32,000 bases of DNA from Trichodesmium erythraeum IMS101 (GCF_000014265.1 NC_008312.1:1710001-1742000), one strand, 5' to 3'; numbered from the stretch's first letter, positions 5,478-30,193 are shown. Notes: generated from the letters alone by a model not told the origin. A program made the numbers and translations.

Positions 5478-5546
5478 AATTTTAGTTCCCCAAAAAGCAT
5501 GTTTTGATTGTTCATTTGTATCACATTATTAGCCTGTCTGATTCAT

Positions 5547-5566
5547 CTCACACCATTTGGTGTGAG
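5547..5566 (-). other. Perfect 8-bp stem / 4-nt loop hairpin in the spacer between the 1316-aa and 1107-aa genes
   Basis: CTCACACC attt GGTGTGAG. No U-tract follows on the minus strand, so it is more likely an RNA stability or processing element than a terminator. Confidence 0.4.
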
Positions 5567-5602
5567 GCTCAATAGCGACTTCAGCTAAATAGAATAGAAA
5601 GG

Positions 5603-5617
5603 TAGCCCAGAGGGCTA
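5603..5617 (-). terminator. Weak candidate intrinsic terminator just after the 1316-aa gene stop
   Basis: The minus strand reads TAGCCC tct GGGCTA followed by CCTTTCTATTCTATTT. The stem is only 6 bp. Confidence 0.3.
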
Positions 5618-5630
5618 GCCCACAAGTGAG

Positions 5631-8600: not shown

Positions 8601-9581
8601 ATCCCCATTAAATTCCTGGGCTAAATAAGCAGAAATAGCTTCTGAGTCTGAATTGCCAATGGCAAGAGTGGGTGTTTCCAAAGTTGGCCAATTCCCTGCC
8701 CCGGTAAAAGTTATGCGAGAATGATAAAGAGTGCGATGTAGTATATCTTTTACACCTTCAAAAGTCCAATAAAACTGCTCTTGTAGAGCTTGTAAGAATT
8801 CTTCAGCTGTTGTACAACTATTAGCTTCGACAAACTGTTTTAAACAGTCGTCTTCTGCATCACTATACCAACCAATTACATCATATTGTAAGTCTTTAGG
8901 AGGTGTATCAGTTTCAAAATCAGGATCATGAAACCCAAAAACACTATAACAGTTAGGATAAAAGGCTGCAAAGGTAGCTTTAACTTCATCAAAAATAGGG
9001 ATGGTTGCCTGGTTGCCCATAGCGGTTAATTCTTCAGCATATTCTGGGTTTTCACCACCTTCTTCTGGCCACTGACTTAATTCCCAACATTTCCCCATAT
9101 AACGATACCGTTGGTATTGATAAGTATCAGGCTTTTTGGGATCAACGGTTGCTAGATCAGGGGGTTGAATGAGAATATTAATGGCATTTGGTGGACTACT
9201 ACTACTATCATTCGGATCTAACTCAGGGTATAAATAGTCACTTTCAATAACCCAAGTTTTCTCTTCTGTTTCTCCCCCTTTACGTACAATTAACCAACGG
9301 TTGGGAACTACTGGAAAAGTTGTTCCATTACTGTCGTGCTGTCCATTTGTTAGAGCATCAGGTAAAGACCAATGGAGATGGATTCCTTTTTTCAGGGTAA
9401 ATTCGTGGTTAAATAATGGGCCTAAAGCTGTTTTACTTAAATTTTCGCTTCCTGAGTTGTAAGTATGCTCCTTATATTTATAAGGCAATAACGTATAGTC
9501 AACCATAGCTCTGACAGCTTGTTTATCCTCTTTTAAACATAGAGCATCAGTATGGATAGGAACTAGTAAGGTTTTACTCAT
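5631..9581 (-). CDS. Very large (1316 aa) hypothetical protein, no recognisable domain
   Basis: Long ORF from the track. The N-terminal motif is HLHWSLPDAL...FPVVPNRWLIVR. I found no Walker A, HExxH, signal peptide or TM segment. It shares strand and locus with the two genes downstream. Confidence 0.85.
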   Translation of the reverse strand: MSKTLLVPIHTDALCLKEDKQAVRAMVDYTLLPYKYKEHTYNSGSENLSKTALGPLFNHEFTLKKGIHLHWSLPDALTNGQHDSNGTTFPVVPNRWLIVRKGGETEEKTWVIESDYLYPELDPNDSSSSPPNAINILIQPPDLATVDPKKPDTYQYQRYRYMGKCWELSQWPEEGGENPEYAEELTAMGNQATIPIFDEVKATFAAFYPNCYSVFGFHDPDFETDTPPKDLQYDVIGWYSDAEDDCLKQFVEANSCTTAEEFLQALQEQFYWTFEGVKDILHRTLYHSRITFTGAGNWPTLETPTLAIGNSDSEAISAYLAQEFNGDTNDSGKTVRKSIQDTLETLHLSERLESRKLDLDAKFREGRQERGFGAQNEGVLWLLMPRSSQLEQPNTKTSLDLLPDHLAQLLNELNALQEDYNQAWLDIGSLRDRLYTQWYYSITHKTSPTNFYQIFNKTSLIPLRTAIAKTGELEFTQDEKGNTTVTSKTLPFGILSWLNTYFSNYVDTMQLATNSSFNKWEDIQVEFKNCGVEISDSPIVSKIIDDQEWEIQDNGLTYPVKVEGGIFTIYIPPSEAQVAFNLVKKLNELSQAITTYNENSATQYQLRTFPTQSYWRGNDPVILLAGESTKSPLRFGQDGRLHDDDLLECIPLDFDITEILNNHQDLLNQINSLQPDESKESINFITWTQQPWNPFAFHWSVLNYPCRDIESSTVQDYNSNQILDNYELQKNAIDLKLRDGKESSFISNGNTYSGFSILTPSAGTELILRLSTYLNEQLLPNYYSKNNISEKDQTSNYLDDNLDEITNWYQEENQLEIQEQQAADPTFIALWAYRKMKTLDCQAQMLGGFNDTLLLGQPTLQLQVDDPLDTDNIGQLVTEQVRWSLGNRLQHKILSGDIFNPIRSGGFSVKKLWLIDTFGQYQEVVNDSNQNTKIVTTYQMTPADKNSVNYQAILPPRIAQSSRLNFHWLSADALQEVEYTKIPARTPVCGWIVPNNLDSNLAIYDNQGRSLGSIDLLGNWRNAPGVKLSRDHNGYPLLGNDHLQKLAHHLLEQGKDFQQQFLSTVDNALETIDPESFAQNTGLALLVGRPMAIVRATFSLEVKGLPACDPTVLVQEENEFPSYGFTGVQVPIRLGDYQQLNDGLVGYWKEIPKANGIEGDYEYENNIFYATQSNLVDSNNIITDSEGIVHFLQNVDAEPQSVTMLIDPRGLVHASCGVLPNQELRLPSEHYNQALEKMEVNFLSTPILSNSGELAMPLSPEANATWSWVSLTKSENGEEWTERATIKPINTRATFTQMQEALEGWLQLSRANITDE

Positions 9582-9912: not shown

Positions 9913-10940
9913 TAGAGTTGTTGGGAAATAAGGTAAAATAATTTCAGAAAAAATTTGCCATAAAAATGCTAAATATTGAACGAGCCTTAAAACAAGACAG
10001 ATTACTCAGAGCATTAACACCCATTAAACCGTAAAGCATTTGAATCTTTGTTGGAGTCCTTTGGGCAAATGTATGAGCAAACATTGCACTCGCTCACCTC
10101 GTCAACGCTCTGTTGGAGGAGGTCTTTTGGCTCGTTTACGCACTCTACAAGACAAATTGTTTGACATTCTCTTCTACTTTAAATGTTACCCGACTTTTGA
10201 CTTAGCTGGTATCTTGTTTGATATCGACCGTAGTCAAGCACATTATTGGGTTCATCGCTTACAAACTATGTTAGAAGCAGCCTTGGGAGAAAAAAAGGCG
10301 CGATGCATTGCGTCAAATTAACAGTGTCCAAGGATTCATAGAGCGTTTCCCTCGAGTAGAACGAGTGATAATGGATGGCACAGAACGGCCAGTACAAAGA
10401 CCAACTCACTCTGAAAAACCAAAACTGAATTATTCAGGAAAAAAAAAGCGTCACACTCGCAAACATCTAGTAGCAGTTAATCAAAACAAGAAAGTGCTGG
10501 TATTGAGTCAGGCACGAGAAGGAAAGCTGCATGAAGTCGAAGTTCCATGACCAGGAAAAATTGATAGGAAATATACCTCTAGAGATTCCGATAGAAGTAG
10601 ACAGTGGTTTCCAAGGTCTCCACGCATCAGTATGAAAATATCCGAATCCCCCATAAAAAACCAAAAGGGGGAGAGTTAAGTGAGCAACAAAAACAGATTT
10701 TCGGAAATTGAGTCAATCAAGGGTAGTCTGTGAAAACGCCTTCGCGGGCGTCAAGCGTTATGGAGCTGTCAGTCAGATTTATCGTAATCACAAGTATGAT
10801 TTTGATGACAAATTAATGCTAACAGCAACTGGTGAGTGGAACTTATATCTGATGACAGCATAAGTAGTCAAATTACTAGGGAAATATGTCAAGTTTTCGT
10901 TTGAGTTTTTTCTCTCCTAAGTTATTTCCCAACAACTCTA
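9913..10940 (+). mobile_element. IS5-family-like insertion sequence (Harbinger/DDE_Tnp_4-type transposase), inactivated
   Basis: Perfect 19-bp terminal inverted repeats: TAGAGTTGTTGGGAAATAA (9913-9931) and TTATTTCCCAACAACTCTA (10922-10940). The outer TA could instead be a 2-bp target duplication. The repeats enclose a single broken transposase gene. Confidence 0.85.
9965..10863 (+). pseudogene. IS5-like DDE transposase with several frameshifts and stops
   Basis: Homologous pieces lie in different frames. They are MLNIERALKQDRLLRALTPIKP*, LRTLQDKLFDILFYFKCYPTFDLAGILFDIDRSQAHYWVHRLQ, VIMDGTERPVQRPTHSEKPKLNYSGKKKRHTRKHL, IPIEVDSGFQGL, QYENIRIPHKKPKGGELSEQQKQ and VVCENAFAGVKRYGAVSQIYRNHKYDFDDKLMLTATGEWNLYLMTA*. 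Track ORFs 10040..10321 and 10308..10550 are fragments of it. Confidence 0.85.
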
Positions 10941-19587: not shown

Positions 19588-20550
19588 AAAAAGTAAAGTA
19601 TCGCCTATTGCCAAAGTTGTTTAGCCTGTCTACAAATGTTTTCTATGTAATTTTCTAATGGTGTCTCAGGAGCAAAGTGTAAACAGTGAATATTCTTTTT
19701 TTCACTATTATTGATAATACATGAAAATCACGAAATTATTGAGAATGATCAGGACTTGCACTATCAAAAATTCAAACAATTTTGGCTTATTGACTCTGGT
19801 TTTGTAGATGTCTAACAAAATTAATTGTTAATAAAATCTTAGCTGTTTGATAAGTGCTAGGTATCTCTTCACCACTGATATATTTCTATTGCGCTATAGT
19901 TAAGTTACCAGAGTTACCATGTAGTTGTCTACATCTATTTCTCGTTTTTTTTATAGGCGATCGCTTCATCCATAACCACAAATATGTCTTCCAAGTAGAT
20001 GCTACTCATAGTTAGTAAAAACTTGATATTTTTCCTGAAATGATTTCTCTAGGGTTGTCTTGAAGCCTATAATTAATTATTTAGTTGTGCTGCTCTACCA
20101 CACATTTATCAGATTTATATTTGGGGCTTCTGTTTTTTTGACGCCAACTAACTCCAGCGTTTTTAAATAAATTATAATAACTTTGACAGGAGCGATATAC
20201 TACTCCATAATACTGTTCAACGTGATCAATTAACTCTGAAATATTTATGCGTGTTTTTTGTTTTAGCCAATTCATGACAGCTTCACGTTGTTCCTTATTC
20301 AAGTATCCTGCACTACCTTTATATTTCAATTTTATACCCATTAACCCTTCTTCTCGATAACGTTTTTCCCAACGACTAATATAACTTGACTCAACACCCA
20401 GTATAGTCTGAATTTCCCGATGCTTAAATCCTTCAAACCGCATTTTTACTACTAAAGCTCGCTTTAACTCTCTGGGATCCGGATTAGTTGCTATAAAATC
20501 TTCAATTAACATAAAAACACAATGTGCTATTTTTATTTACTTTACTTTTT
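19588..20550 (-). mobile_element. Degenerate IS630-family-like element (boundaries tentative)
   Basis: 13-bp inverted repeat AAAAAGTAAAGTA (19588-19600) / TACTTTACTTTTT (20538-20550), with TA after the right end. The N-terminal HTH ORF is intact. The DDE part is recognisable only as stop-ridden fragments on the minus strand, e.g. LIVQVLIILNNFVIF (compare VILDNASIH) and HFAPETPLENYIENICRQAKQLW (compare FAPYSPELNPIE). Confidence 0.5.
20081..20512 (-). pseudogene. IS630-family transposase, N-terminal DNA-binding portion only (143-aa ORF)
   Basis: REIQTILGVESSYISRWEKRYREEGLMGIKLKYKGSAGYL...EQREAVMNWLKQKT...ISELIDHVEQYYGVVYRSCQSYYNLFKNAGVSWRQ is typical of IS630 HTH modules. No intact catalytic domain follows. 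Confidence 0.7.
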
Positions 20551-20624
20551 TATGATAACTTAATTGATATTTAAAGTTAAATGTTGCACAATACAAAAGC
20601 GATATTGTAGAATTTTATTGAATA

Positions 20625-20951
20625 ATGCATTGTCCTTATTGTCAAAGTCATAAAATAGTTAAAAATGGCCATCGTAACGGAAAACAGAGTTATTTGTGTC
20701 GTAAATGTGGCCGTCAATTTAGAGAAAACCCTTGTCCTATCGGTTATAGCTCTGAGGTTAAAGAGGCTTGTCTAAAAATGTTCCTTAGCGGCATGGGGTT
20801 TCGAGCTATTGAGAGAGCCACTGGTATTTCCCACAACAGCGTCCTTAACTGGGTACGCCGCGCAAAAGTAAATGTTTCTGATCGGAATTCTGAAGCTTCT
20901 GAAGCCGCTCAAGTTGATGGACTGCAGATTTTTGTTGACCCAAAAAAATAA
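20625..20951 (+). pseudogene. IS1-family transposase, truncated after the zinc-finger/HTH N-terminus (108 aa)
   Basis: MHCPYCQSHKIVKNGHRNGKQSYLCRKCGRQF (zinc finger) and GMGFRAIERATGISHNSVLNWVRRA (HTH). The ORF stops at ...LQIFVDPKK*, where intact IS1-type proteins continue into the catalytic domain. Confidence 0.65.
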
Positions 20952-21336
20952 CTTAGATATCAATAATTCTAAGTAGCAAAATACTAGGACTTCTGAAGTT
21001 GGTGGTAGGCGATCGCTCTCTTACCTTCACACTTATGATGCAGATAACTTCACCTCAAGGCCTATGCTATTCCCCCCTTTATCTCTCCCCAAGAGCGGAA
21101 ACCAAAAGTCAAAGGTCAAAGGTTAGAAAAAAACCATCAGTTAGGTTTCACTTTGTTCTACAAAACCTAAATTTTTCGACGTTTTGCAGCTATTTAGTAA
21201 TTTTCGTCTCCGTAGACCAGAGTAGAAACCCCCTTATGCAACCTCTATAATATACAAAATACAGAGTTTTGCCGATAGCAATGTAGTTATGAAACTACAC
21301 CACCTACCACCTACCAGCTAAAATTTACCACCTATC

Positions 21337-21413
21337 ACCTAATACCTAAAACCTAAAACCTAATACCTAATACCTAATACCTAATACCTAATACCTAAAA
21401 CCTAATACCTAAC
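21337..21413. repeat. Heptanucleotide tandem repeat, 11 units of ACCTAAT/ACCTAAA (STRR-like)
   Basis: Units were read directly from 21337 to 21413. The tract is preceded by CCACCTA CCACCTA. The CHAT gene stop (21395-21397) and its last 5 codons lie inside the tract. Confidence 0.95.
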
Positions 21414-24400
21414 TCACTGACTGACTGACATATCCACGCTCCCCAAAAATAAGGATGAGCTAATGGTTTACTCTCAATTTTTAGATTTTTTCCTAAATTT
21501 AATTCCCCTAAAATATCACTCCCTAATTTACTTTTTTGTAGTTCTCCAACTGTAATATTTCTGATATATTTCTGGGCTTTTCTTAAGGCGGCCCCTGCAC
21601 TCATTCCTGACCGTGAATCATCTAAAAATTGCTCCATTAATAACATGGTTGCTAATGTTGGTACGCTCCACAAACTCATTATTAATGTTTGATTCCCCGC
21701 AACGGCAAAGGCACGACGCAAACCGAATACTCCTTCTCCCGTTTGCACGTCTCCTAACCCGCTTTCACAGGCGATTAAAATTACTAGCTCTGTTTCCCAG
21801 AGGTCAAGCCCGGCAATATCTTGAGCAAATGCCATTGTTGGGAATTCTGGGGGGAGTTGGCCACCAGAAAGCCAGGTGTTGGCACCTGTAAAAGCGACGG
21901 CGGAACCCATCATCGGGTTTTCGATTTTTGCTTGGTGGCGGTTGGGTTTGAAGGTCTCAAAATCCATGTTATTAACTGGGGGTTTGACTGGGGTCGTCTT
22001 GAGCTGCTGTTTCACTAGAGGGGCGATCGCTCTTAACTTTTCTCTGATTTTATTATCCCTATTTTCTGAGTTTCGGTATCTTTCAATAAATGCCAGAAAC
22101 TCTTCATCCAGTAAACCATAATTTTTTTCTAATATCTCTACTTCTTTTCCCTGGGAAGAGGACAGTAACTCTTTCAACAAAGTCAGATATTTATCTTTTC
22201 TCTGGGAGTAATAACCGTGGGTGGCAACTATGAGCTGTTTGGGAGATTGACATTTGAGCAGGCGATCGGCAGTTGCCTCATTTCCCAGAAAAGGTTTGAC
22301 TCCTAACTGTTGTCCAATAGTTTTGGCAAGATCAGCGGTTGCTTTCACTCGTGGAAATGTTATCCCTGCCAGAGTACCTAACATTGGCTGAACATTCAGA
22401 CCAGAAACAGCCGGACTTTCTTTTTGTTGTGCCATATCTGGAGCATTCTGAGGCCAATCAAAGTTAGGGTCGGCCATAATTAATGGTGGGTTTGCTGTGG
22501 GTTTTGTTTTGATCCGACGCCGCAATAATTCTCGCCCAACGCTGACATAACTAATGTTGTACTCATCCTGCAATGTTGTTTTCCCATCATCTTCTGGTAA
22601 GATTTGAAATGGCACTAGGTTTAAATCACCATCGGGAGCTAATACTAGATGAGAGCAACCTGTTAATTTATCTCGCAATTTATCAAAAACTGCTTCTCGT
22701 AGTTCTTTCCCTGGTTGGGAGTCATAGATATAATGTTTTGTAGGTGTTTCTGTTTCTGTAGAATTTGGTTTATTATTCCACATATTCATCTGTTGTGGTA
22801 GTGGCCACTTTATTACTGAGTTTCGGTAAGTCGAAATTAGGCGATCGATATTTTCTGCTTCTCCTAAATCAATCATTTCTACTTCAGAAGGTTTTCCCCC
22901 AGCTAAAACAAATGCCAGATACCGGGCTTTTCCCCAACTCTTCTCCTGAACATCATAGACATCAAACTGCACAAATTCCAATAATTTTTCCCCCTCTGAT
23001 AACTCTGACGCGACTGCCCGTATGTCTCCCATTTGTTGCTGTATTTCAATTTCTGGCATTTGTTGGGTTAACTTTCTTTCTAACTCATTACATTCTTTTT
23101 GCAGTTGAGCTAACTGTTGTTTGTGAGTTTCCCGTTTTTCTGGTCGGGGTACTTCATAGGTAAGTGTTAAAAGTTGGTCGCACTTTCGCCGCCACTGTGG
23201 GAAAATTTCTTGGAGTTGGGGATAACGGCCACTGAATACGGCTTGGTTTTGAGCGGCCATGGCTGTTGCTGTTAGAGATTTCCGTTTGAGGACGAGATTT
23301 AATGCTGCTTGTTTGGCTTCTGGGGAGTGGGGGAAATGTTGGTAGACTAAGGAGAGGAATGTCTCTAGGTTAGGTCTGACTTCTTGTTTGATATGGGCGA
23401 GGCGATCGCTTTCGGAGCTAGAAGCAAAGATAGCCTGGATAGTTTTATCTTCGATTTTGCTGGCTTTGAGCATCAGTTTGAGTGCTTCCGAGTATCTCCC
23501 TTGAGATGCATATAATAAAGCTAGGTTATTGAGGCAAGAGGCACGTTGTGGATGATTCGCAGGCAGGGCGACTTTGTGGATTTCTATTGCTTGTTTGTAC
23601 AATGGTTCCGCTTCCGAGTATCTCCCTTGAGCACGATATAATTCTGCTAGGTTGTTGAGGTTGGTTGCCAGGGATGGATGATTGGCAGGCAGGGCGACTT
23701 TGTGGATTTCTATTGCTTGTTTGTACAATGGTTCCGCTTCCGAGTATCTCCCTTGAGCATGATATAATTCTGCTAGGTTGTTGAGGTTGGTTGCCAGGGA
23801 TGGATGATTGGCAGGCAGGGCGATTTTGTCGACTTCTATTGCTTGTTTGTACAATGGTTCCGCTTCCGAGTATCTCCCTTGAGCAGAATATAAAACTGCT
23901 AGGTTGTTGAGGTGGGTTGCCAGGGATGGATGATTGGCAGGCAGGGCGATTTTGTCGACTTCTATTGCTTGTTTGTACAATGGTTCCGCTTCCGAGTATC
24001 TCCCTTGAGCACGATATAATTCTGCTAGGTTGTTGAGGTTGGTTGCCAGGGATGGATGATTGGCAGGCAGGGCGATTTTGTCGACTTCTATTGCTTGTTT
24101 GTACAATGGTTCCGCTTCCGAGTATCTCCCTTGAGCACGATATAATTCTGCTAGGTTGTTGAGGTTGGTTGCCAGCTCTGGATGATTGGCAGGCAGGGCG
24201 ATATTGTCGATTTCTATTGCTTGTTTGTACAATGGTTCCGCTTCCGAGTATCTCCCTTGAGCACGATATAATTCTGCTAGGTTGTTGAGGTTGGTTGCCA
24301 GGAATGGATGATTGGCAGGCAGGGCGACTTTGTAGATTTCTATTGCTTGTTTCAACAATGGTTCCGCTTCCGAGTATCTCCCTTGAGCACGATATAAACC

Positions 24401-25918
24401 TGCTAGGTTATTGAGGCCAGAGGCACGTTGTGGATGATTGGCAGGCAGGGCGACTTTGTGGATTTCTATTGCTTGTTTGTACAATGGTTCCGCTTCCGAG
24501 TATCTCCCTTGAGATTTATATAAACCTGCTAGGTTGTTGAGGTGGGTTGCCAGGTCTGGATGATTGGCCGGCAGGGCGATCTTGTCGATTTCTATTGCTT
24601 GTTTGTACAATGGTTCCGCTTCCGAGTATCTCCCTTGAGAAGAATATAAACCTGCTAGGTTGTTGAGGTCGGTTGCCAGGGATGGATGATTGGCAGGCAG
24701 GGCGATATTGTCGATTTCTATGGCTTTTTTGAACAATGGTTCCGCTTCCGAGTATCTCCCTTGAGATTCATATAAACCTGCTAGGTTGTTGAGGTTGGTT
24801 GCCAGGGATGGATGATTCGCCGGCAGGGCGATTTTGAAGATTTCTATGGCTTGTTTGTACAATGGTTCCGCTTCCGAGTATCTCCCTTGAGCACGATATA
24901 AATTTGCTAGGTTGTTGAGGTTGGTTGCCAGGGATGGATGATTCGCCGGCAGGGCGACTTTGTGGATTTCTATGGCTTGTTTGTACAATGGTTCCGCTTC
25001 CGAGTATCTCCCTTGAGCACGATATAATTCTGCTAGGTTGTTGAGGTCTCTAGCCAGGGATGGATGATTCGCAGGCAGGGCGATATTGTCGATTTCTATT
25101 GCTTGTTTGTACAATGGTTCCGCTTCCGAGTATCTCCCTTGAGCACGATATAAATTTGCTAGGTTGTTGAGGTTGGTTGCCAGGGATGGATGATTCGCCG
25201 GCAGGGCGATTTTGAAGATTTCTATGGCTTGTTTGTACAATGGTTCCGCTTCCGAGTATCTCCCTTGAGATTCATATAAACCTGCTAGGTTGTTGAGGTT
25301 GGTTGCCAGGGATGGATGATTCGCCGGCAGGGCGATTTTGAAGATTTCTATGGCTTGTTTGTACAATGGTTCTGCTTCCGAGTATCTCCCTTGAGCACGA
25401 TATAAATTTGCTAGGTTGTTGAGGTTGGTTGCCAGGGATGGATGATTCGCCGGCAGGGCGACTTTGTGGATTTCTATGGCTTGTTTGTACAATGGTTCCG
25501 CTTCCGAGTGTCTCCCTTGAGATTCATATAATAAAGTTAGGTTGTTGAGGTTGGTTGCAACTTCGGCATGACTTTCTCCCCAGAGTTGTCGCGCTAACGT
25601 CACCCCTTGTTCGGCAATAGGTATTGCTTCATCATATTTACCGGCATTGTAGAGTTCCATTACTTGAACATCTAGCTTTTCTTTTGCCTCCATCATTTCT
25701 GCCAATTCGTTAGCCAAGCCTTGCAACCATTTTGCATTTTTCTCCCCATCTTCTACCATTTTAGCCGCCACTAACTCCATCGTTTTGACAAAGGCTGCAT
25801 CTAATAATTGAGAATTGGCGTGCAAAATTGCTTGCTCTTCCCCACTAGAGCAAGTTAATAGTTGGTCTATTAAATCTAGGCGAGCTTTAAGTTGTTCTTG
25901 AAATTGTTCTTCAGTCAT
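21395..25918 (-). CDS. TPR-repeat CHAT-domain (caspase-like) peptidase, 1507 aa
   Basis: 17 QGR[YH]SEA-containing 42-aa TPR units (kinesin-light-chain type, TPR_10/TPR_12-like). The C-terminal CHAT signatures are HLVLAPDGDLNLVPFQILP, the catalytic His in LIVATHGYY (codon 22216-22218) and the catalytic Cys in LVILIACESGLGD (codon 21767-21769). Confidence 0.9.
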   Translation of the reverse strand: MTEEQFQEQLKARLDLIDQLLTCSSGEEQAILHANSQLLDAAFVKTMELVAAKMVEDGEKNAKWLQGLANELAEMMEAKEKLDVQVMELYNAGKYDEAIPIAEQGVTLARQLWGESHAEVATNLNNLTLLYESQGRHSEAEPLYKQAIEIHKVALPANHPSLATNLNNLANLYRAQGRYSEAEPLYKQAIEIFKIALPANHPSLATNLNNLAGLYESQGRYSEAEPLYKQAIEIFKIALPANHPSLATNLNNLANLYRAQGRYSEAEPLYKQAIEIDNIALPANHPSLARDLNNLAELYRAQGRYSEAEPLYKQAIEIHKVALPANHPSLATNLNNLANLYRAQGRYSEAEPLYKQAIEIFKIALPANHPSLATNLNNLAGLYESQGRYSEAEPLFKKAIEIDNIALPANHPSLATDLNNLAGLYSSQGRYSEAEPLYKQAIEIDKIALPANHPDLATHLNNLAGLYKSQGRYSEAEPLYKQAIEIHKVALPANHPQRASGLNNLAGLYRAQGRYSEAEPLLKQAIEIYKVALPANHPFLATNLNNLAELYRAQGRYSEAEPLYKQAIEIDNIALPANHPELATNLNNLAELYRAQGRYSEAEPLYKQAIEVDKIALPANHPSLATNLNNLAELYRAQGRYSEAEPLYKQAIEVDKIALPANHPSLATHLNNLAVLYSAQGRYSEAEPLYKQAIEVDKIALPANHPSLATNLNNLAELYHAQGRYSEAEPLYKQAIEIHKVALPANHPSLATNLNNLAELYRAQGRYSEAEPLYKQAIEIHKVALPANHPQRASCLNNLALLYASQGRYSEALKLMLKASKIEDKTIQAIFASSSESDRLAHIKQEVRPNLETFLSLVYQHFPHSPEAKQAALNLVLKRKSLTATAMAAQNQAVFSGRYPQLQEIFPQWRRKCDQLLTLTYEVPRPEKRETHKQQLAQLQKECNELERKLTQQMPEIEIQQQMGDIRAVASELSEGEKLLEFVQFDVYDVQEKSWGKARYLAFVLAGGKPSEVEMIDLGEAENIDRLISTYRNSVIKWPLPQQMNMWNNKPNSTETETPTKHYIYDSQPGKELREAVFDKLRDKLTGCSHLVLAPDGDLNLVPFQILPEDDGKTTLQDEYNISYVSVGRELLRRRIKTKPTANPPLIMADPNFDWPQNAPDMAQQKESPAVSGLNVQPMLGTLAGITFPRVKATADLAKTIGQQLGVKPFLGNEATADRLLKCQSPKQLIVATHGYYSQRKDKYLTLLKELLSSSQGKEVEILEKNYGLLDEEFLAFIERYRNSENRDNKIREKLRAIAPLVKQQLKTTPVKPPVNNMDFETFKPNRHQAKIENPMMGSAVAFTGANTWLSGGQLPPEFPTMAFAQDIAGLDLWETELVILIACESGLGDVQTGEGVFGLRRAFAVAGNQTLIMSLWSVPTLATMLLMEQFLDDSRSGMSAGAALRKAQKYIRNITVGELQKSKLGSDILGELNLGKNLKIESKPLAHPYFWGAWICQSVSELGIRF
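23480..25560 (-). repeat. Array of about 17 near-identical 126-bp (42-aa TPR) units with a 504-bp higher-order repeat
   Basis: The block GCTTCCGAGTATCTCCCTTGAG...GGTTGTTGAGGTTGGTTGCCAGGGATGGATGATT recurs every 126 bp. GATGATTCGCCGGCAGGGCGACTTTGTGGATTTCTATGGC occurs at 24937 and 25441 (offset 504 = 4 units). Confidence 0.95.
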
Positions 25919-26113
25919 ATTAGTTTCTCCTTATTTGAATAACCCTATCATATCCGATCAAACACTCCCGTGGTTGTAGTTGTTCTTTTGCACCCTAATA
26001 TAGACCTCTATCCATTCAGGAAAACCAAGAAATCTTAGGGACTACTGGGAGTATCTTACTTCCATTCTTATGATATTTCAATAAGTTCAAAATTGCAACA
26101 AAAAATCCATATT

Positions 26114-26158
26114 GTTCTACATAATTCTACCTAGCTCTACCTAGTTCTACTTACCTAT
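26114..26158 (-). promoter_or_regulatory. 10-bp-phased direct repeat array TCTAC(A/C)TA x4 upstream of the CHAT gene
   Basis: TCTAC occurs at 26116, 26126, 26136 and 26146 (exact 10-bp spacing), 200-235 nt upstream of the start codon. Homologous arrays lie upstream of both paralogue genes. Confidence 0.6.
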
Positions 26159-26341
26159 ATATGATTCTAAACAAATCTATTTTGATTTTAAATAGACTTA
26201 TTTACTATTATTATTTTATCCACAAAATCTGCCTACAAAAAATTATATCTAACTCTAGTTAACTCTAAAGCCTACTATTTACATCCCTTGAAAATGCAAT
26301 TTAAAATAAAAGTATACTTTCCCAATAAATCACGGAATAAA

Positions 26342-26518
26342 ATGTCTAAACCAATTAAAATCTTATTAATTTCAATCTTTGCCGGAAGTATTTTCAGCAT
26401 ATTATCATTGAGCAATAACCAAAACAGCAAAGAAATTAGTCAAGCCCTTGAAAGTGGAGTAACTATGACATCCACCATAGCCAGTTTACTAATAAGCTTA
26501 AAAGATAGCAATGAATAG
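26342..26518 (+). CDS. Small (58 aa) single-pass membrane peptide, divergent from the CHAT gene
   Basis: MSKPIKILLISIFAGSIFSILSLSNNQNSKEISQALESGVTMTSTIASLLISLKDSNE has one clear hydrophobic helix. The track ORF starts earlier, at TTG 26288. A decayed homologous copy at 29020-29243 shows the sequence is a duplicated unit. Confidence 0.45.
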   Translation: MSKPIKILLISIFAGSIFSILSLSNNQNSKEISQALESGVTMTSTIASLLISLKDSNE

Positions 26519-26550
26519 TACTGCTCAAACTCAAAAGTCAACACCCCTGT

Positions 26551-26615
26551 TTTAGTTATAGAAAATTAGTTGTGAAACCCTATCACCAGGCACCAGCCAC
26601 CTAAAACCTAACACC
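26551..26615. repeat. Orphan copy of the gene-3'-flank block (TAGTT.TGAAACC...CACCAGGCACCAGCCACCTAAAACC.AACACC)
   Basis: Direct repeat of 26727-26805. It is also related to 21284-21335, downstream of the CHAT gene. Confidence 0.8.
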
Positions 26616-26646
26616 TATTCCTTATTTTTCAGCTACTTAAGCAACT

Positions 26647-26693
26647 TTCATGTCGCTAGACCAGAGTAGGGATGTTTCACTACGCGACATGAA
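26647..26693. repeat. Palindromic element (copy B) with a perfect 10-bp inverted repeat
   Basis: TTCATGTCGC (26647-26656) pairs with GCGACATGAA (26684-26693). The interior TAGACCAGAGTAG is also present at about 21224-21236, and GACATGAAACGC is shared with copy A at 11445-11486. Confidence 0.7.
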
Positions 26694-26726
26694 ACGCATT
26701 TTTGTGATGCAACCTCCCTACAAAGC

Positions 26727-26805
26727 TTTAGTTATAGAAACTTAGTTATGAAACCGTACCACCAGGCACCAGCCACCAGCCACCTACCACCTAAAACCCA
26801 ACACC
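26727..26805. repeat. 3'-flank block directly downstream of paralogue A
   Basis: TTTAGTTATAGAAACTTAGTTATGAAACCGTACCACCAGGCACCAGCCACCAGCCACCTACCACCTAAAACCCAACACC. This is a direct repeat of 26551-26615. Confidence 0.8.
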
Positions 26806-26813
26806 AACTACAC

Positions 26814-27599
26814 CTAAACCACATCATAAAACATATACCACAAAGTAGAGTCTGACTCAGCCTGAAAATAAGTCAAAAATTCCTGCAAATGCTTTCCCTC
26901 TAACAACAAAGGTGGTTGGTCTCCTTGTGGTAACCAACTTAACCTTGGACGTTCCTGACTGATCCCCGCTATGATCTCCTCAACCCCTGGTTTACCATCC
27001 AACCTAAAATAATCAACTGGCGCCCCCTCCATAGGTAAAGACACCACACCCGCATCAAAAATAGGCAAAGCTCCCAAAAATGAAGGAGACAAACAATAAA
27101 ACTCACCAGAAGTACCCCTTTCTAACAGAGTTAAATATCCCCGACGTTCCAACCGTACCTCAAACTTAATTTCACTATCTAGAGGCACAGTCTTAGGATA
27201 ATGAGGATCAACCGTATACATATCCATTGTGCTCATCCCTTGAAGAACAGGACCCATTTTATTAGTTGAAGTAGCCATATTTTTTAATTGATACCAGGGA
27301 TAAAGAACTTCACGGAGCCACTGTCTAGCAATATTAACTTTATCTCTTGTCGCGTCATTAAAATGACAACCTTCAACCTCCAGTTTTTTAAATATTCTCC
27401 TCAAAGCATCCCGCATAGTATTATTATGTCGTAAATTTGTTAATAAAACATCAGCCAAAGCTGCATTATTCAAATCATCATTATTTATTTTAAACCGTTC
27501 AATAAATACAAGCCTAGTGTTATCTTTAAGACTCAACTTATCAGCTACTTCTCCCAGAAAAGCAACCTCATTATTTTTGTAACTTTCTTCTGGCATCAT
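26814..27599 (-). CDS. Paralogue A: small protein with an HTH-like N-terminus and a DUF4384-like C-terminal beta domain
   Basis: The track ORF starts at TTG 27602; ATG 27599 with AAGGAA upstream is the more likely start. The N-terminal region FLGEVADKLSLKDNTRLVFIERF...LADVL...MRDALRRIFKKLEVEG resembles sigma70-region-4/LuxR-type HTH modules. The C-terminal region IKFEVRLERRGYLTLLERGTSGEFYCLSPS...SLPMEGAPVDYFRLDGKPGVEEIIAGIS fits my recollection of DUF4384 (PF14326). Confidence 0.8.
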   Translation of the reverse strand: MMPEESYKNNEVAFLGEVADKLSLKDNTRLVFIERFKINNDDLNNAALADVLLTNLRHNNTMRDALRRIFKKLEVEGCHFNDATRDKVNIARQWLREVLYPWYQLKNMATSTNKMGPVLQGMSTMDMYTVDPHYPKTVPLDSEIKFEVRLERRGYLTLLERGTSGEFYCLSPSFLGALPIFDAGVVSLPMEGAPVDYFRLDGKPGVEEIIAGISQERPRLSWLPQGDQPPLLLEGKHLQEFLTYFQAESDSTLWYMFYDVV

Positions 27600-27666
27600 C
27601 AACCATTCCTTTCTTATAGGTTCATTTATAATGATACTTCAATAAAATCAAAAAATCTACAAAAAA

Positions 27667-27711
27667 ACTACATGACTCTACATAACTCTACCTATCTCTA
27701 CCTATCTCTAA
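27667..27711 (-). promoter_or_regulatory. 10-bp-phased repeat array (ACTAC, TCTAC x3, TCTAA) upstream of paralogue A
   Basis: Pentamers start at 27667, 27677, 27687, 27697 and 27707, which is 70-110 nt upstream of the start codon. A candidate TTGATT-N15-TATAAA promoter (minus strand, 27651-27625) lies between the array and the gene. Confidence 0.6.
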
Positions 27712-27951
27712 CTAGCTGTATATCGCTTAAAATTGACTTATTTTCACTTTCAAAAGATTGATATTCTATTATTATTATCTACAAAATTTACCTTGATAAA
27801 ACTTCCAAATAATTCTCATCAAACCTATTTCCTACTTACAGCTTAGTCAAACCCATCCCACTGGACTCAAACCTAAAAAACTAACACCTAAAACCTCAAC
27901 CTCTGCTCGTACCTTACCCTTCCCTGAAACCGAGCTTCAACCCCGTGAATT

Positions 27952-27974
27952 CCCCCCTTGCCCTCCAAGGGGGG
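27952..27974 (-). terminator. GC-rich hairpin 25 nt downstream of the paralogue B stop
   Basis: CCCCCCTT gccctcc AAGGGGGG (8-bp stem, 7-nt loop). No U-tract follows on the minus strand. Confidence 0.4.
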
Positions 27975-27999
27975 GTTGACTTTGAGCTTATGTATAGCG

Positions 28000-28806
28000 C
28001 TAAACCACCTGATAATGCATGTACCATAAAGTAGAGCCTAACTCAGCCTTAAAATACATCAAAAACTCCTGTAAGTGCTCTCCCTTTAAAAGCAAAGGTA
28101 GTTGGTCCGCCGCCGGCAACCAATCTAAGTTTGGACGTTCGTGACTGATCCCTGCTATGATCTCCTCAACCCCTATTTTACCATTCAACTTAAAATGATT
28201 AACTGGTGCCCCCTCCATTGGTAACGATGCTACGCCCCCATCAAAAATAGGTGAACTTGCCAAACACGAAGGAGACAAACAATAAAATACGCCAGAAGCA
28301 CCTTTTTTTAAGAGAGTTAAATATCCCGAACGTTCCAACTGTACCTCAAACTTAACCTCACTATTGAGAGGTATAACACTGGGATAACGAGAAACAGTTT
28401 TAGACGTATCCAACTGTGTAATTCCTTGGATAACAAGACCCATTTTATCAGTAAAAGTCGCCATATCTTTTAATGCATGCCAGGGATAAATTATTTCACG
28501 CAACCACCGTTTAGCAATTTTAACCTTGTCTCTTTTTGCTCCCTCAAAATCACAACCTTCAGTCTCCAGTTTTTTAAATATTGTTTTCAAAGAGTCCCGC
28601 AAAATAATATCTGATGTTGCTTTTTTGCTAGCATTCTGTAATAAATTACTTGATAAAACATCAGCCAGTTTTTGATTATTCAAATCATCATTATCTATTT
28701 TAAACCGCTCCGTAAACACCAGCCTGGTTTTATCTTTAACCATCAATTTATCAGCTATTTTGTTCAGAAAAATAGCCTCATTATTTTTATAACTTTCCTC
28801 TAGCAT
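28000..28806 (-). CDS. Paralogue B: small protein with an HTH-like N-terminus and a DUF4384-like C-terminus
   Basis: The track ORF extends to 28875. The alignment with paralogue A starts at MLEESYKNNE (ATG 28806), which has AAGGAA about 10 nt upstream. The proteins are collinear and by eye about two-thirds identical. B has an insertion of about 8 aa (ASKKATSD) in the HTH-like region. Confidence 0.8.
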   Translation of the reverse strand: MLEESYKNNEAIFLNKIADKLMVKDKTRLVFTERFKIDNDDLNNQKLADVLSSNLLQNASKKATSDIILRDSLKTIFKKLETEGCDFEGAKRDKVKIAKRWLREIIYPWHALKDMATFTDKMGLVIQGITQLDTSKTVSRYPSVIPLNSEVKFEVQLERSGYLTLLKKGASGVFYCLSPSCLASSPIFDGGVASLPMEGAPVNHFKLNGKIGVEEIIAGISHERPNLDWLPAADQLPLLLKGEHLQEFLMYFKAELGSTLWYMHYQVV

Positions 28807-28876
28807 AATCAAATTTTCCTTCTTGATAACTTTGTCTATAATTATATTTCTACAAAATTGAAATTGACACAACAAT

Positions 28877-28911
28877 TATACACAATTCTACATAAACTTA
28901 CATAGGGATGC
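28877..28911 (-). promoter_or_regulatory. Degenerate copy of the 10-bp-phased array upstream of paralogue B
   Basis: TATAC at 28877, TCTAC at 28887 and CTTAC at 28897, each followed by A(C/T)A. A TATAAT on the minus strand (28846-28841) lies between the array and the start. Confidence 0.45.
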
Positions 28912-29019
28912 ATAACTGTATTTTGATTTAAAACAATATTTTTTATATCATTATTCATTATTTGTACTTTGATCAAAAACTTATTTAACTCTAACTACTA
29001 CTATTTACATATCCTAAAT

Positions 29020-29243
29020 TTTGAAATTAAATTATAGTATATTTACCCAAGAATTAAGATCATAAAACCTATAAATTAATCAATTTTTATTAATTTTAAT
29101 CTTTAGTGGAAGTATTTTCAGCATTTTCTCAGTCAATAATAATCAAAACTCAAAATAAATTAGTCAAGCTGTTGAGCAGATAAAATAACTATAACATCTA
29201 ACATGACTAGTTTATTAAGAATTTTAAAAGACGCCAATAAAAG
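29020..29243 (+). pseudogene. Decayed copy of the small membrane-peptide gene
   Basis: The corresponding frame reads KPIN*SIFINFNL*WKYFQHFLSQ**SKLKIN*SSC*ADKITITSNMTSLLRILKDANK. The intact copy reads KPIKILLISIFAGSIFSILSLSNNQNSKEISQALESGVTMTSTIASLLISLKDSNE. Confidence 0.6.
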
Positions 29244-29338
29244 TTTTCCAAATATTAATTATTCAGCCTTTGTAGCGCAGTTCAAGAGCTTAAGAAAATG
29301 TAGTCAACTCTTAATAAAATATTCTTATCTCATCCTTT

Positions 29339-30193
29339 TCATTCCTTTTTATCCTTTTCCTCTTTGATAATATTTTGTATTCCCGACTGCTGCAAAAAAT
29401 CTAAAGCAGATTTAGCAGCCGCTTCCTCTGCGGCCTTAATAGATGGTCCTTTACCTACACCAAGTTTCTGGCCTTTAAACCAAACTTCGGCAAAGAAACG
29501 TTCGCGATCGCCATAAATCTTATTTACTTCGTGAGCTTGATAATTTGGTAACGTTTTGTAATAACCTTGAGTCAGCTCTTGGAGAGCAGCCTTATAACTG
29601 TGGCAAGCGGGATCCTTGCGAATTTCTGCTATTAACCTTTCAAAATGAGAATCTAACCAAGGGCGGATCAACTCTAAATTATTAGTACTCAAATAAAGAG
29701 CACCCAAAACAGCCTCAAAAGAATCTGCAAGTCGACGCTCTCTTCCAACTTTATCCCCTGCTGCACTTTTGGATACCAATAAATAACGACTCCACCCATA
29801 CTTATCGGCAATTTGTGCCAAAGAGCGATCGCTTACTAAAATAGAACGAATGGCAGTAAATTCTCCTACTGAACAATTAGGATAATTTTCCAACAGTAGT
29901 TGTGCCGCCACAAGCCGTACCACTGCATCCCCAAAAAACTCTAGCTTTTCATTATTATGTGTTGATGAAACTGTAGAGTGAGTTAATGCCAAATCTAATA
30001 AATTCCATTTAATCAAAGCTTGTTGAGAAATAGATAATTTTTCAACTAAAGATTTAAGTTGCCTTTGGCGCGAATGATACATTTGAGTCATTATTCTGAT
30101 GCTTTTAGTCTCTGCTGCTATATTTTTGTGACTAACTTCCCCAAGCTCACCCATAAAAATTGTACAAGCTTCGGAGCTAGCCTCCTGCTTCAT
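29339..30193 (-). CDS. rnc: Ribonuclease III
   Basis: Signature NEKLEFFGDAVVRL; catalytic-domain residues ...DSFEAVLGALYL; C-terminal dsRBD ...FFAEVWFKGQKLGVGKGPSIKAAEEAAAKSAL. The true start may be an internal Met (30091 or 30082), because the first 35 aa or so look like an extension. Confidence 0.9.
   Translation of the reverse strand: MKQEASSEACTIFMGELGEVSHKNIAAETKSIRIMTQMYHSRQRQLKSLVEKLSISQQALIKWNLLDLALTHSTVSSTHNNEKLEFFGDAVVRLVAAQLLLENYPNCSVGEFTAIRSILVSDRSLAQIADKYGWSRYLLVSKSAAGDKVGRERRLADSFEAVLGALYLSTNNLELIRPWLDSHFERLIAEIRKDPACHSYKAALQELTQGYYKTLPNYQAHEVNKIYGDRERFFAEVWFKGQKLGVGKGPSIKAAEEAAAKSALDFLQQSGIQNIIKEEKDKKE

Follow-up and report, generated by a model that had tools for sequence, protein, structure and literature searches.

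Among the described systems in which a protease controls transcription, CalpL-CalpT-CalpS consists of a type III CRISPR-linked Lon protease, an anti-sigma factor and an ECF sigma factor. At the level of promoter DNA, tandem direct repeats with a period of 10 bp are the classic signature of OmpR/PhoB-type response regulators, and the OmpR F1-F3 sites and the four TorR decamer boxes form multi-unit arrays much like the GTAGA array described below. In the type III-E system, Csx30 is cut by the TPR-CHAT protein Csx29, and the C-terminal domains of Csx30 include a DUF4384 group (10.1101/2022.08.17.504292). The factor released in the Csx30 circuit binds motifs in its own locus, which results in positive autoregulation (PMC10028731). 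The HLR1 octamer of RpaB reads (G/T)TTACA(T/A)(T/A), and HLR1 sites that are centred near -51 activate transcription (PMC6525291).

The locus analyzed here is part of a stretch of 32,000 nucleotides of Trichodesmium erythraeum IMS101, referred to as the window, and contains the following genes and remnants:

21395 to 25918, minus strand: gene of a TPR-CHAT (caspase-like) protease of 1507 amino acids (Pfam CHAT, E = 5.7e-46)
26342 to 26518, plus strand: divergent ORF of 58 amino acids with one hydrophobic N-terminal segment, sharing its intergenic region with the array of the CHAT gene
26814 to 27599, minus strand: paralogue A, 261 amino acids, with a five-helix N-terminal domain (residues ~1-108), a linker and a DUF4384 beta-sandwich
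28000 to 28806, minus strand: paralogue B, 268 amino acids, of the same architecture and 67% identical to A
29060 to 29270, plus strand: degenerated duplicate of the 58-aa ORF (pseudogene) on the far side of paralogue B, recognized by direct reading and alignment

Trichodesmium is a major marine nitrogen fixer, the bloom collapse of which has been linked to caspase-like proteases, and to our knowledge the control of these proteases is poorly understood. At this locus a TPR-CHAT protease gene is preceded by a concrete candidate for a control element and has a candidate regulator as its neighbour. The protease gene holds 16.5 copies of a 126-bp TPR repeat, and the linker of the DUF4384 paralogues and their homologues contains an invariant T-x-K-M-G motif. 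The candidate control element consists of the following repeat arrays:

26114 to 26153, minus strand: array of the CHAT gene, four 10-bp units that read TAAGTAGAAC, TAGGTAGAGC, TAGGTAGAAT and TATGTAGAAC on the gene strand
27665 to 27714, minus strand: array of paralogue A, three exact GTAGA (27677-27701) with degenerate flanks, TTAGA on the distal and GTAGT on the proximal side
28875 to 28914, minus strand: decayed array of paralogue B, one exact unit TATGTAGAAT (core at 28887-28891) and three degenerate units

On the given strand the GTAGA of the gene strand reads TCTAC in all three arrays. The initial annotation had located this pentamer correctly at 26116/26126/26136/26146 and 27677/27687/27697, with ACTAC (27667) and TCTAA (27707) on either side of the latter array. 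The exact 10-bp spacing that it described was recovered at 26116-26150 and 27677-27701, and so was the degenerate third array near 28887, where a single exact TCTAC has TATAC (28877) and CTTAC (28897) as its neighbours. An extra TCTAC occurs on the side of paralogue A at 27656, 11 bp from the ACTAC at 27667. The assertion that each pentamer is followed by (A/C)TA fails for the unit at 26146, where TTA follows. TCTACMTA has seven exact matches in the window, all inside the three arrays, against 2.3 expected. With up to two mismatches allowed, TCTAC-N5-TCTAC-N5-TCTAC gave seven matches versus 0.01 expected (100 shuffles, none of which reached seven), and Tandem Repeats Finder returned period-10 arrays at 26114-26150, 27668-27710 and 28872-28892. 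The consensus unit on the gene strand is the 10-bp sequence Y-A-n-G-T-A-G-A-R-y, with three to five units per array. In a matrix of 50 units the information resides in A-n-GTAGA, the remaining three positions being free. Given the unit length of 10 bp, the GTAGA cores all lie on the same face of the helix.

Between and around the arrays and the genes, the following elements were discerned:

25919 to 26063, minus strand: extra leader of the CHAT gene, ~145 nt, between promoter and start codon (insertion in the alignment)
26070 to 26098, minus strand: promoter-like TTGCAA-17-TATCAT of the CHAT gene (promoter scan), with a predicted transcription start near 26063
26176 to 26196, no strand assigned: distal element TCTATTTTGATTTTAAATAGA, adjoining the CHAT array and conserved as TTTTGAATCAAAATAGA in related loci
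27631 to 27660, minus strand: promoter-like TAGATT-17-TATCAT of paralogue A, read by eye and aligned with the CHAT promoter
28841 to 28870, minus strand: promoter-like GTGTCA-18-TATAAT of paralogue B (promoter scan and direct reading)

As had been proposed for two of the arrays, promoter-like hexamers lie downstream, in fact of each of the three and on the minus strand of the genes. Counted from the proximal GTAGA, the CHAT gene has its -35 starting at 17 nt and its -10 at 40 nt; this -10 block is kept in the alignment of the upstream regions of the window as well as in orthologous loci. The -35 of paralogue A overlaps the extra GTAGA at 27656-27660 and is weak, which is why the automatic hexamer scan did not list this promoter; its -10 lies exactly 40 nt after the proximal exact GTAGA. 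The promoter of paralogue B has the best hexamers of the three and a -10 that begins 40 nt after the exact GTAGA. The distance from the proximal GTAGA to the -35 is 7 or 17 nt, equivalent to 30 or 40 nt to the -10, and the latter distance is exactly 40 nt at all three promoters of the window and, in most orthologues, 30 nt. Dapis (L090) and L098 are not clean cases of this rule. The array would span roughly -41 (or -51) to -90 of a predicted sigma70-type promoter whose -10 is good and whose -35 is weak, the usual place for an activator that contacts RNA polymerase from upstream. In a related locus, L119, the repeats are only ~20-55 nt away from the annotated start codon, a position that fits a repressor or a leader better than an upstream activator site. 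The additional leader that had been reported in front of the CHAT start codon is real, as the insertion is missing from both paralogue promoters in the alignment of the three upstream regions. It gave no Rfam match and a fold z-score of -0.18, and shows no homology to the paralogues or to the Trichodesmium locus L093. The distal element overlaps TTGATT-18-TATTAT (26182-26211, promoter scan) and may include the -35 (TTGATT) of a promoter of the small ORF, or else represent a second operator. The small ORF has no Pfam family and is kept at 73-92% identity beside the array in Okeania and Trichodesmium loci.

The array was said to precede all three genes, which is correct as far as its presence is concerned and not in the sense of independent occurrences. 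Homology among the three upstream regions extends over ~300 bp, and the arrays are not independent inventions because one promoter module was duplicated; the pseudogene beyond paralogue B shows that the whole divergent module took part. The ancestral state would have been a single array and promoter in front of a DUF4384 gene that was followed by the TPR-CHAT gene. In L027 a DUF4384 gene and a TPR gene are found 33 bp apart behind a single array, and the N-terminus of the TPR protein matches that of the CHAT protein of the window (the locus ends before any CHAT domain). In Trichodesmium, duplication of the promoter module would then have yielded intact copies at paralogue A and at the protease, with the copy at paralogue B decaying. 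In relatives, the orthologue of B has lost its array to a small inverted-repeat insertion.

Outside the window, (G/A)TAGA units spaced 10 bp apart, three to five in number, precede the genes of homologues from Okeania, Dapis, other Trichodesmium, Nostoc and uncultured cyanobacteria, with protein identities as low as ~30%. We found four units in Okeania KiyG1 (L087/L006), four and five in Trichodesmium relatives (L093), three plus one in L108, three in both L027 (41% identity) and L099 (38% identity), and three GTAGA units with an in-phase ATAGA in each of L088, L096 and L107; in Dapis (L090) the array precedes a homologue with 44% identity. Two of these loci, L006 and L027, were retrieved by the DNA pattern alone and both proved to adjoin genes of the family. 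The array of the CHAT gene is identical in three other assemblies of the T. erythraeum clade, in which nearby leader bases vary. Within 174-178 kb of cyanobacterial DNA, no run of at least three pentamers spaced 10 bp apart and no RTAGA chain was present except upstream of N-domain genes or the CHAT gene of the window. The reading as an operator array was supported by this absence of other clusters in 178 kb, the conservation across genera, the drifting spacers and the helical phase to the -10. The comparison indicates that the array is under selection, and considering its recurrence in distant cyanobacteria it is very probably the docking site of a regulator.

The array accompanies the N-terminal helical domain and not DUF4384. 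A fusion of the N-domain to NB-ARC (L100) has five RTAGA units upstream, and the fusion to NACHT in L119 has ATAGA at 2943/2954/2964 plus ATCGA, with a weaker case in L105. The core reads GTCGA instead of GTAGA in the divergent P0063 clade (L098). Where Nostocales homologues have a Cro/C1 HTH in place of the N-domain (Pfam HTH_26 at 27 bits, the cutoff being 22), the repeats are others and GTAGA is missing. The proposal that the adjacent paralogues bind the array therefore gained in plausibility, as the array tracks the N-domain through three C-terminal fusions, and its core changes, or the array vanishes, with the N-domain. Judged from these sequences the partner proteins, the DUF4384 paralogues themselves, are the likeliest binders. 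A promoter is physically linked to the start of the coding region beside it, so that array and N-domain would to some extent be inherited together even with another binder.

The argument originally given for such binding, a likeness of the N-terminal module to the sigma70-r4/LuxR HTH, was not supported, as this identity failed every test that was run (profile, PDB, hhalign and Foldseek). Paralogues A and B showed no N-domain match at E <= 0.1 in Pfam (Sigma70_r4, Sigma70_r4_2 and GerE included) or NCBIfam, and no PDB sequence matches the N-domain; Sigma70_r4 and GerE were absent from the 25 best represented of 41 Pfam families that matched 43 N-domain sequences weakly (E <= 1). The likeness is a superficial pattern: hhalign pairs LADVL...MRDALRRIFKKLEVEG of the paralogue with the GerE HTH at a probability of 2.7% (0.2% for sigma70 region 4), the pairing requires a gap of seven columns at the turn, and some homologues carry a loop of 30-50 residues exactly at the would-be turn. 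The AlphaFold model of the paralogue consists of the N-terminal helical domain, a low-confidence linker (116-132) and a beta-sandwich. The confident AlphaFold model of the N-domain (pLDDT 86.6) had a best Foldseek E of 3.5 with TM <= 0.34, and as modelled the domain is a new five-helix fold without PDB neighbour. No relation to any known DNA-binding fold was detected by Pfam, NCBIfam, PDB, Foldseek or hhalign. The domain occurs in cyanobacterial proteins that fall into about a hundred representative clusters at 50% identity, NACHT/NB-ARC NTPases included, and the domains at the N-termini of such NTPases are often protein-protein adaptors and not DNA binders. In P0035, which has a receiver domain, the N-domain sits C-terminal, in the position of an output domain, and in the Nostocales homologues a genuine HTH occupies its place. 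One member exceeds the cutoff of Pfam Myb_DNA-bind_6, a single match that could be due to chance. Together, the location of the domain and the Myb match hint at DNA binding.

The array could instead be the operator of a separate trans-acting factor, most likely an RpaB-like winged-helix response regulator of the OmpR/PhoB family. Such regulators occupy tandem direct repeats in head-to-tail order and activate from around -50; the paralogues would be regulated targets only. The geometry agrees with HLR1, which has octamers 2 nt apart and, in activating sites, a centre ~51 nt before the start (PMC6525291). At least two direct octamers with this spacing and a 10-bp period are present in the window and in orthologous loci, and TCTACATA agrees with the octamer at seven of its eight positions. 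The matrix of 50 units with its A-n-GTAGA core departs from the octamer consensus (PMC6525291), as the defining TTACA positions are not conserved: T precedes G in 24 of the 50 units, and the G of GTAGA, which takes the place of the base completing TGTAA and breaks HLR1, is found in 47. The missing DNA-binding fold of the N-domain would suit a separate factor, as would TCTAC-type 10-bp arrays in Cyanothece, Crocosphaera, Limnoraphis and Kamptonema, which have no N-domain gene within the stretch examined (up to 8 kb). Against a separate factor, the array goes along with the N-domain when this is fused to NB-ARC or NACHT, in unrelated genomic contexts and hosts, with a core that changes with the N-domain clade, and a response-regulator gene was not found in the cassette of the window. 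In addition, the Okeania KiyG1 and Trichodesmium genomes in a scan of species representatives gave no other strict array, which argues against a wider regulon at this stringency. We consider control by such a separate factor unlikely, albeit the foremost alternative.

The array might instead act in RNA: GUAGA repeats in the 5' leader, or in a transcript that runs divergent or antisense, would be recognised by an RNA-binding protein, possibly the N-domain itself. This would fit promoter-like hexamers distal to the CHAT array (e.g. TTTAAA-17-TAGAAT at 26192..26164) and the repeats immediately before the start codon in L119. The distal sites, however, are not kept in orthologous loci, whereas the -10 block 30/40 nt downstream is kept in about 13 of them; there is no Rfam match, and the strict 10-bp period with its phase lock to the -10 makes sense for double-stranded DNA and not for RNA, rendering this explanation very improbable. 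Hardly any weight can be given to a neutral minisatellite, common in cyanobacterial intergenic DNA and carried along without function in the duplication of the promoter module, even if perfect tandem repeats of the 10-bp pattern occur at 86 loci in many phyla (genome scan), the unit number varies among genera (3 to 5) and duplication produced the three copies in the window. In the array, the cores are constant while the bases between them differ among units and species, the opposite of what slippage yields; it persists at the low protein identity given above, is fixed in phase at 30 or 40 nt from the -10, is identical in four assemblies of the T. erythraeum clade although nearby leader bases vary, and has nothing comparable elsewhere in the 178 kb. 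Near-identical copies, a strain-variable copy number and a lack of positional constraint, which define minisatellites and STRRs, are not what the array displays.

We favour, as somewhat better than an even proposition, a conserved autoregulatory operator array that is bound by the N-domain of the paralogues within a protease circuit of the Csx29/Csx30 type. The observations on which this builds are the array and its conservation, the phase that it keeps to the -10, its association with the N-domain and the architectures of the proteins. From these we infer that the N-domain binds the array, that it activates and does not repress, and that the linker is cleaved. The five-helix domain of the DUF4384 proteins would bind the array directly upstream of their own genes, head-to-tail and as an oligomer, and so regulate these genes. 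The conserved T-x-K-M-G linker may be a target of the TPR-CHAT protease, whose cut would alter the activity of the DNA-binding fragment and couple expression of the protease to the state of its substrate. A bolder version, which we regard as speculative and improbable in its entirety, is a CRISPR-free caspase-like circuit in which cleavage of a tethered factor at T-x-K-M-G frees the five-helix domain to oligomerise on the GTAGA array, with positive feedback on the protease and its own gene, and in which the domain, fused to NACHT, NB-ARC or receiver domains, defines a new cyanobacterial family of regulators with RTAGA-repeat operators. If the N-domain does bind the array, a function would be gained for a domain of about a hundred clusters, immune-type NACHT/NB-ARC NTPases among them, the Csx29/Csx30 logic of a protease controlling transcription would reach beyond CRISPR loci, and cyanobacterial genetics would obtain a simple pair of operator and regulator.

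With the sites of RpaB (HLR1), OmpR, TorR and PhoB the array has in common that the repeats are direct and not inverted, with one 8+2 nt unit per helical turn, upstream of a weak -35 at around -45 to -90. It differs from HLR1 in its core, GTAGA instead of TGTAA/TTACA, and in having three to five units versus two; unlike OmpR-type sites in general it is tied to one gene family and not to a regulon, and its candidate binder is not a winged-helix response regulator. In comparison with type III-E, Csx30, too, can have a C-terminal DUF4384 (10.1101/2022.08.17.504292), and in the window two-domain proteins with a flexible linker and a C-terminal DUF4384 (Pfam and AlphaFold) are encoded adjacent to a TPR-CHAT protease gene. 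A TPR gene also lies downstream in L096, and a TPR protein and a CHAT domain are annotated in L115 and L117, respectively. The PDB sequence search revealed no Csx30 N-terminal domain or similarity to solved Csx30 chains, and the genes of the window include no cas genes, cas7-11, csx31 or sigma factor; Nostocales homologues of the pair do adjoin cas1 and type III-B genes. By analogy with Csx30, the T-x-K-M-G motif may be the cleavage site of the TPR-CHAT protease. Where cleavage in type III-E controls a transcription factor with motifs in its own locus (PMC10028731), the corresponding feature here is the array, a phased direct repeat and not a sigma-factor promoter motif, and the substrate-like protein would itself bind DNA instead of acting as an anti-sigma factor. 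The circuit proposed here differs from CalpL-CalpT-CalpS in protease class, substrate and sigma factor, and we know of no phased operator array described for that system; what the two would share is a defence-linked protease that cuts a tethering protein and thereby turns transcription on.

The cassette genes of the window, which all lie on the minus strand, and the small ORF found among them are the following:

21395-25918, minus strand: TPR-CHAT protease gene, 1507 aa (Pfam CHAT, E = 5.7e-46)
26342-26518, plus strand: 58-aa ORF with one hydrophobic segment, divergent from the CHAT gene
26814-27599, minus strand: paralogue A, C-terminal DUF4384 (Pfam)
28000-28806, minus strand: paralogue B, C-terminal DUF4384 (Pfam)

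Paralogues A and B are 67% identical, and Trichodesmium sp. St18_bin3_1_1 encodes a protein that is 100% identical to A. Direct reading of the sequence confirmed that the TCTAC units (GTAGA in gene orientation) start where the initial annotation had placed them and recur at exactly 10-bp spacing. The window has seven exact TCTACMTA sites, each of them inside one of the three arrays, and the triple TCTAC pattern, allowing up to 2 mismatches, matched seven times against 0.01 expected. The claim that every pentamer is followed by (A/C)TA needs one correction, for the unit at 26146, which is followed by TTA. An array is indeed present before all three cassette genes, but the sequences that contain the arrays can be aligned with one another for ~300 bp, a stretch that takes in the -10 block and the sequence upstream of the small ORF. 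They are thus copies of one duplicated promoter module, and their arrays are not three independent observations. Three further T. erythraeum-clade assemblies carry identical arrays, with differences in nearby leader bases; given this identity among close strains, slippage-driven phase variation of the arrays is unlikely.

Several other features of the region were recorded. A decayed copy of the 58-aa ORF is found past paralogue B. In two distant loci (L027, 3428-3901; L100, 1852-2319) the place that this ORF takes in Trichodesmium and Okeania is occupied by a divergent protein of ~155 aa, the two versions being 51% identical to each other. Both the ORF and the ~155-aa proteins were considered as candidate regulators; none belongs to a Pfam family. 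A known RNA or structured leader for the CHAT gene was rejected, as 25700-29400 gave no match in Rfam and the predicted fold was no better than that of shuffles, and so was a relic of a decayed paralogue, as the leader has no similarity to A, B or L093 (a locus of the second Trichodesmium lineage). The CHAT gene contains a 126-bp (42-aa) TPR repeat in 16.5 tandem copies of 91% identity (23484-25558); in another assembly (L112) the gene call is only 777 aa long, probably owing to collapse of the repeats in assembly. Each cassette gene is followed downstream by tandemly repeated heptamers (ACCTAAT, CCACCAG, AAACCTA; 21299-21412, 26599-26617, 26757-26791, 27869-27896), which are STRR-like repeats, typical of filamentous cyanobacteria. 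Two very large adjacent minus-strand genes within 2154-9581, one of 1107 aa with DUF6603 and an internal 216-bp duplication (4209-4643) and one of 1316 aa without Pfam family, appear unrelated to the cassette. Fragmented transposase-like ORFs at 10040-10550 and 20081-20951 (with HTH_23/HTH_32 and an InsA-like zinc ribbon), the latter group ~450 bp past the 3' end of the CHAT gene, are suggestive of insertion-sequence remnants.

Homologous loci were gathered by protein look-up and by DNA pattern, and a metagenome search contributed only 6 loci. We found GTAGA at 10-bp spacing directly upstream of homologues in other cyanobacteria:

Okeania sp. KiyG1: four GTAGA units and an in-phase ATAGA
Three uncultured Okeania-like genomes: three GTAGA units and an in-phase ATAGA each
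Second Trichodesmium lineage: four units before an A-like gene, five before a decayed third copy
Locus L108: three units plus one
Dapis (44% protein identity): array in two registers
Locus L027 (41% protein identity): three units
Locus L099 (38% protein identity): three units

The Okeania KiyG1 locus L006 and L027 were retrieved by DNA pattern alone, in a scan of 185,579 species-representative genomes, and their adjacency to family genes was recognised only later. A matrix of 50 units reads Y-A-n-G-T-A-G-A-R-y, with the information concentrated in A-n-GTAGA; conservation of the core and drift of the spacers are the reverse of what slippage repeats display. In L093, a third promoter module (4058-4400) has five perfect GTAGA units and is followed by a frameshifted and internally deleted DUF4384-family gene remnant; the contig end resembles Nextera adaptor sequence.

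Within 174-178 kb of cyanobacterial DNA fetched around family genes, all runs of at least 3 identical pentamers at 10-bp spacing, and likewise all chains of at least 3 RTAGA at 9-11-bp spacing, were located just upstream (in gene orientation) of a family gene or of the CHAT gene of the window, and none occurred elsewhere. The strict pattern TCTACnTAnn x3 matched 86 loci in the genome scan, against a rough chance expectation of ~4, a kind of count that tandem repeats inflate. The matches were mostly perfect 10-bp tandem repeats, in phyla that included Bacteroidota, Planctomycetota, Bacillota, Actinomycetota and also archaea. Only L006 and L027 had nearby a gene for the N-terminal helical domain of the paralogues (N-domain), and the 80+ others, mostly such repeats in unrelated phyla, were rejected. 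In the Limnoraphis match the repeat abuts a start codon. Okeania KiyG1 contributed one match, and the Trichodesmium genomes among the species representatives gave none; provided that, as we suspect, IMS101 represents its species there and the region of the window itself is masked, the strict motif would occur at this locus alone.

Downstream of every array comes a conserved -10 hexamer (TATAAT, TATCAT or TATAGT), with a weak -35 located 17 nt before it; the promoter of paralogue B is the best constitutive-looking of the three. The distance from the proximal GTAGA end to the -35 is 7 nt in L087, L088, L096, L107, L108, L099 and both L093 copies, and 17 nt at the CHAT and A promoters of the window, L027 and L100. 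Proximal GTAGA and -10 are exactly 40 nt apart at the three promoters of the window, whereas most orthologues have 30 nt. The gap thus changes by exactly one helical turn, and the array therefore keeps the same helical face with respect to RNA polymerase. At the usual promoter spacing the unit centres would be near -45 (or -55), -65, -75 and -85, and such a location upstream of a weak -35 suggests that the array activates transcription. The proposal of an operator array was corroborated in that the repeats are real and conserved, in fixed phase to the -10 and, in the DNA examined, in clusters specific to family genes and the CHAT gene; the array is very probably a protein-binding operator.

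The nature of the binder can be approached via the N-domain. An exhaustive profile search recovered 103 representative proteins with this domain, most of which carry DUF4384; other fusions include NACHT or NB-ARC NTPases and pentapeptide repeats, and one protein has it C-terminal to a receiver domain, the normal place of an output domain. The earlier assignment to a sigma70-r4/LuxR HTH was not borne out by any of the tests, and assignment to the Myb family was rejected as well. The domain is covered by no Pfam model and had no match in NCBIfam and no sequence match in the PDB; hhalign gave probabilities of 2.7% for GerE, 0.2% for sigma70 region 4 and 0.1% for c-Myb. Only one divergent member passed the Myb_DNA-bind_6 cutoff, and some homologues carry long inserted loops where the HTH turn was supposed to be. 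AlphaFold with a deeper alignment gave a confident five-helix model (pLDDT 86.6), for which Foldseek found no neighbour in the PDB (best E = 3.5); a search with the whole protein matched the DUF4384 part alone, and only weakly, to beta-sandwiches. NACHT-subfamily N-domains (e.g. P0093, P0074, P0111) have a conserved basic K-R-G-R-x-P-K-G-x-S-P-W before the last helix, which resembles an AT-hook-like minor-groove motif, and the DUF4384 subfamily has K-R-D-K at this place.

The array follows this domain into other contexts. An N-domain/NB-ARC gene (L100) is preceded by five RTAGA units (spacings 9, 9, 10, 10 bp) with a 17-nt gap to a TGTAAA-17-TATGAT promoter, and a NACHT-subfamily gene on a Nostoc sp. 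MS1 plasmid by ATAGA at 2943, 2954 and 2964 plus ATCGA at 2974, of which L105 shows a weaker version. The divergent P0063 clade has GTCGA/ATCGA as its core, in five units spaced by 10 bp. On three Nostocales plasmids, homologues retain both linker and DUF4384 but have a Cro/C1 HTH in place of the N-domain (HTH_26, 27 bits vs cutoff 22), and these showed different direct repeats and no GTAGA array. As judged from these loci, the motif changes when the N-domain changes, and a genuine DNA-binding domain can occupy its place in the protein. These are the best arguments for the N-domain as binder; they are not proof, since promoter and adjacent 5' coding region are linked and tend toward joint inheritance.

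The main rival, which we consider unlikely, is an OmpR/PhoB-type response regulator such as RpaB. Tandem direct repeats of 8+2 units upstream of a weak -35 are typical of such regulators, and the array has this geometry. The RpaB element HLR1 has exactly the 8+2 direct-repeat organization, with activating sites near -51 (PMC6525291), and TCTACATA of the array agrees with it at 7/8 positions. However, in the 50-unit matrix the conserved positions are not those that define HLR1, on which basis membership was rejected, and a global regulator is not expected to track one protein domain through unrelated contexts. On balance we favour the adjacent paralogues as the most likely binders, acting via a novel helical domain.

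In L027 a single array precedes a DUF4384 gene that is followed, after a 33-bp gap, by a gene for a TPR protein with an N-terminus like that of the CHAT protein of the window. This looks like the ancestral operon, in which one array would drive both genes; copying of the promoter module took place in Trichodesmium. The copy before B is decaying, and in a sister lineage a small inverted-repeat insertion cost the B orthologue its array. An element of ~100 bp bounded by the inverted repeats CAGGACTTA...TAAGTCCTG (L093 ~2180-2290; in L092, L093 and L095 upstream of P0007), inserted beside or instead of the array in the second Trichodesmium lineage, looks like a MITE.

Nostocales homologues of the pair adjoin cas1 and a type III-B module. 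DUF4384 plus TPR or CHAT gene pairs with the Cro/C1 HTH (L115-L118) are located on Anabaena cylindrica pANACY.01, Nostoc edaphicum pNe_2 and a plasmid of Nostoc sp. UHCC 0870. A long cas1 gene is divergent from the pair in both L115 and L116; a group II intron RT is the only annotation downstream of the L116 DUF4384 gene. On pANACY.01 a type III-B Cmr module is found at a distance of ~10 kb from the pair. These arrangements suggest an origin of the cassette as a CRISPR accessory. Csx29, the TPR-CHAT protease of type III-E CRISPR systems, cleaves Csx30, for which one group of C-terminal domains is DUF4384 (10.1101/2022.08.17.504292). In the present family the linker motif T-x-K/Q-M-G (A residues ~110-118, between N-domain and DUF4384) is invariant, HTH-type Nostocales homologues included, and we regard it, speculatively, as a candidate site of cleavage by the adjacent TPR-CHAT protease. 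Deletion of M427 at the cut site blocks cleavage of Csx30. The protease may cut A and B at this linker, and we infer a link between array and protease. Cleavage of Csx30 frees a sigma factor whose motifs sit in the system's own locus (PMC10028731). Csx29/Csx30 offers a close functional parallel to the TPR-CHAT and DUF4384 pair of the window.
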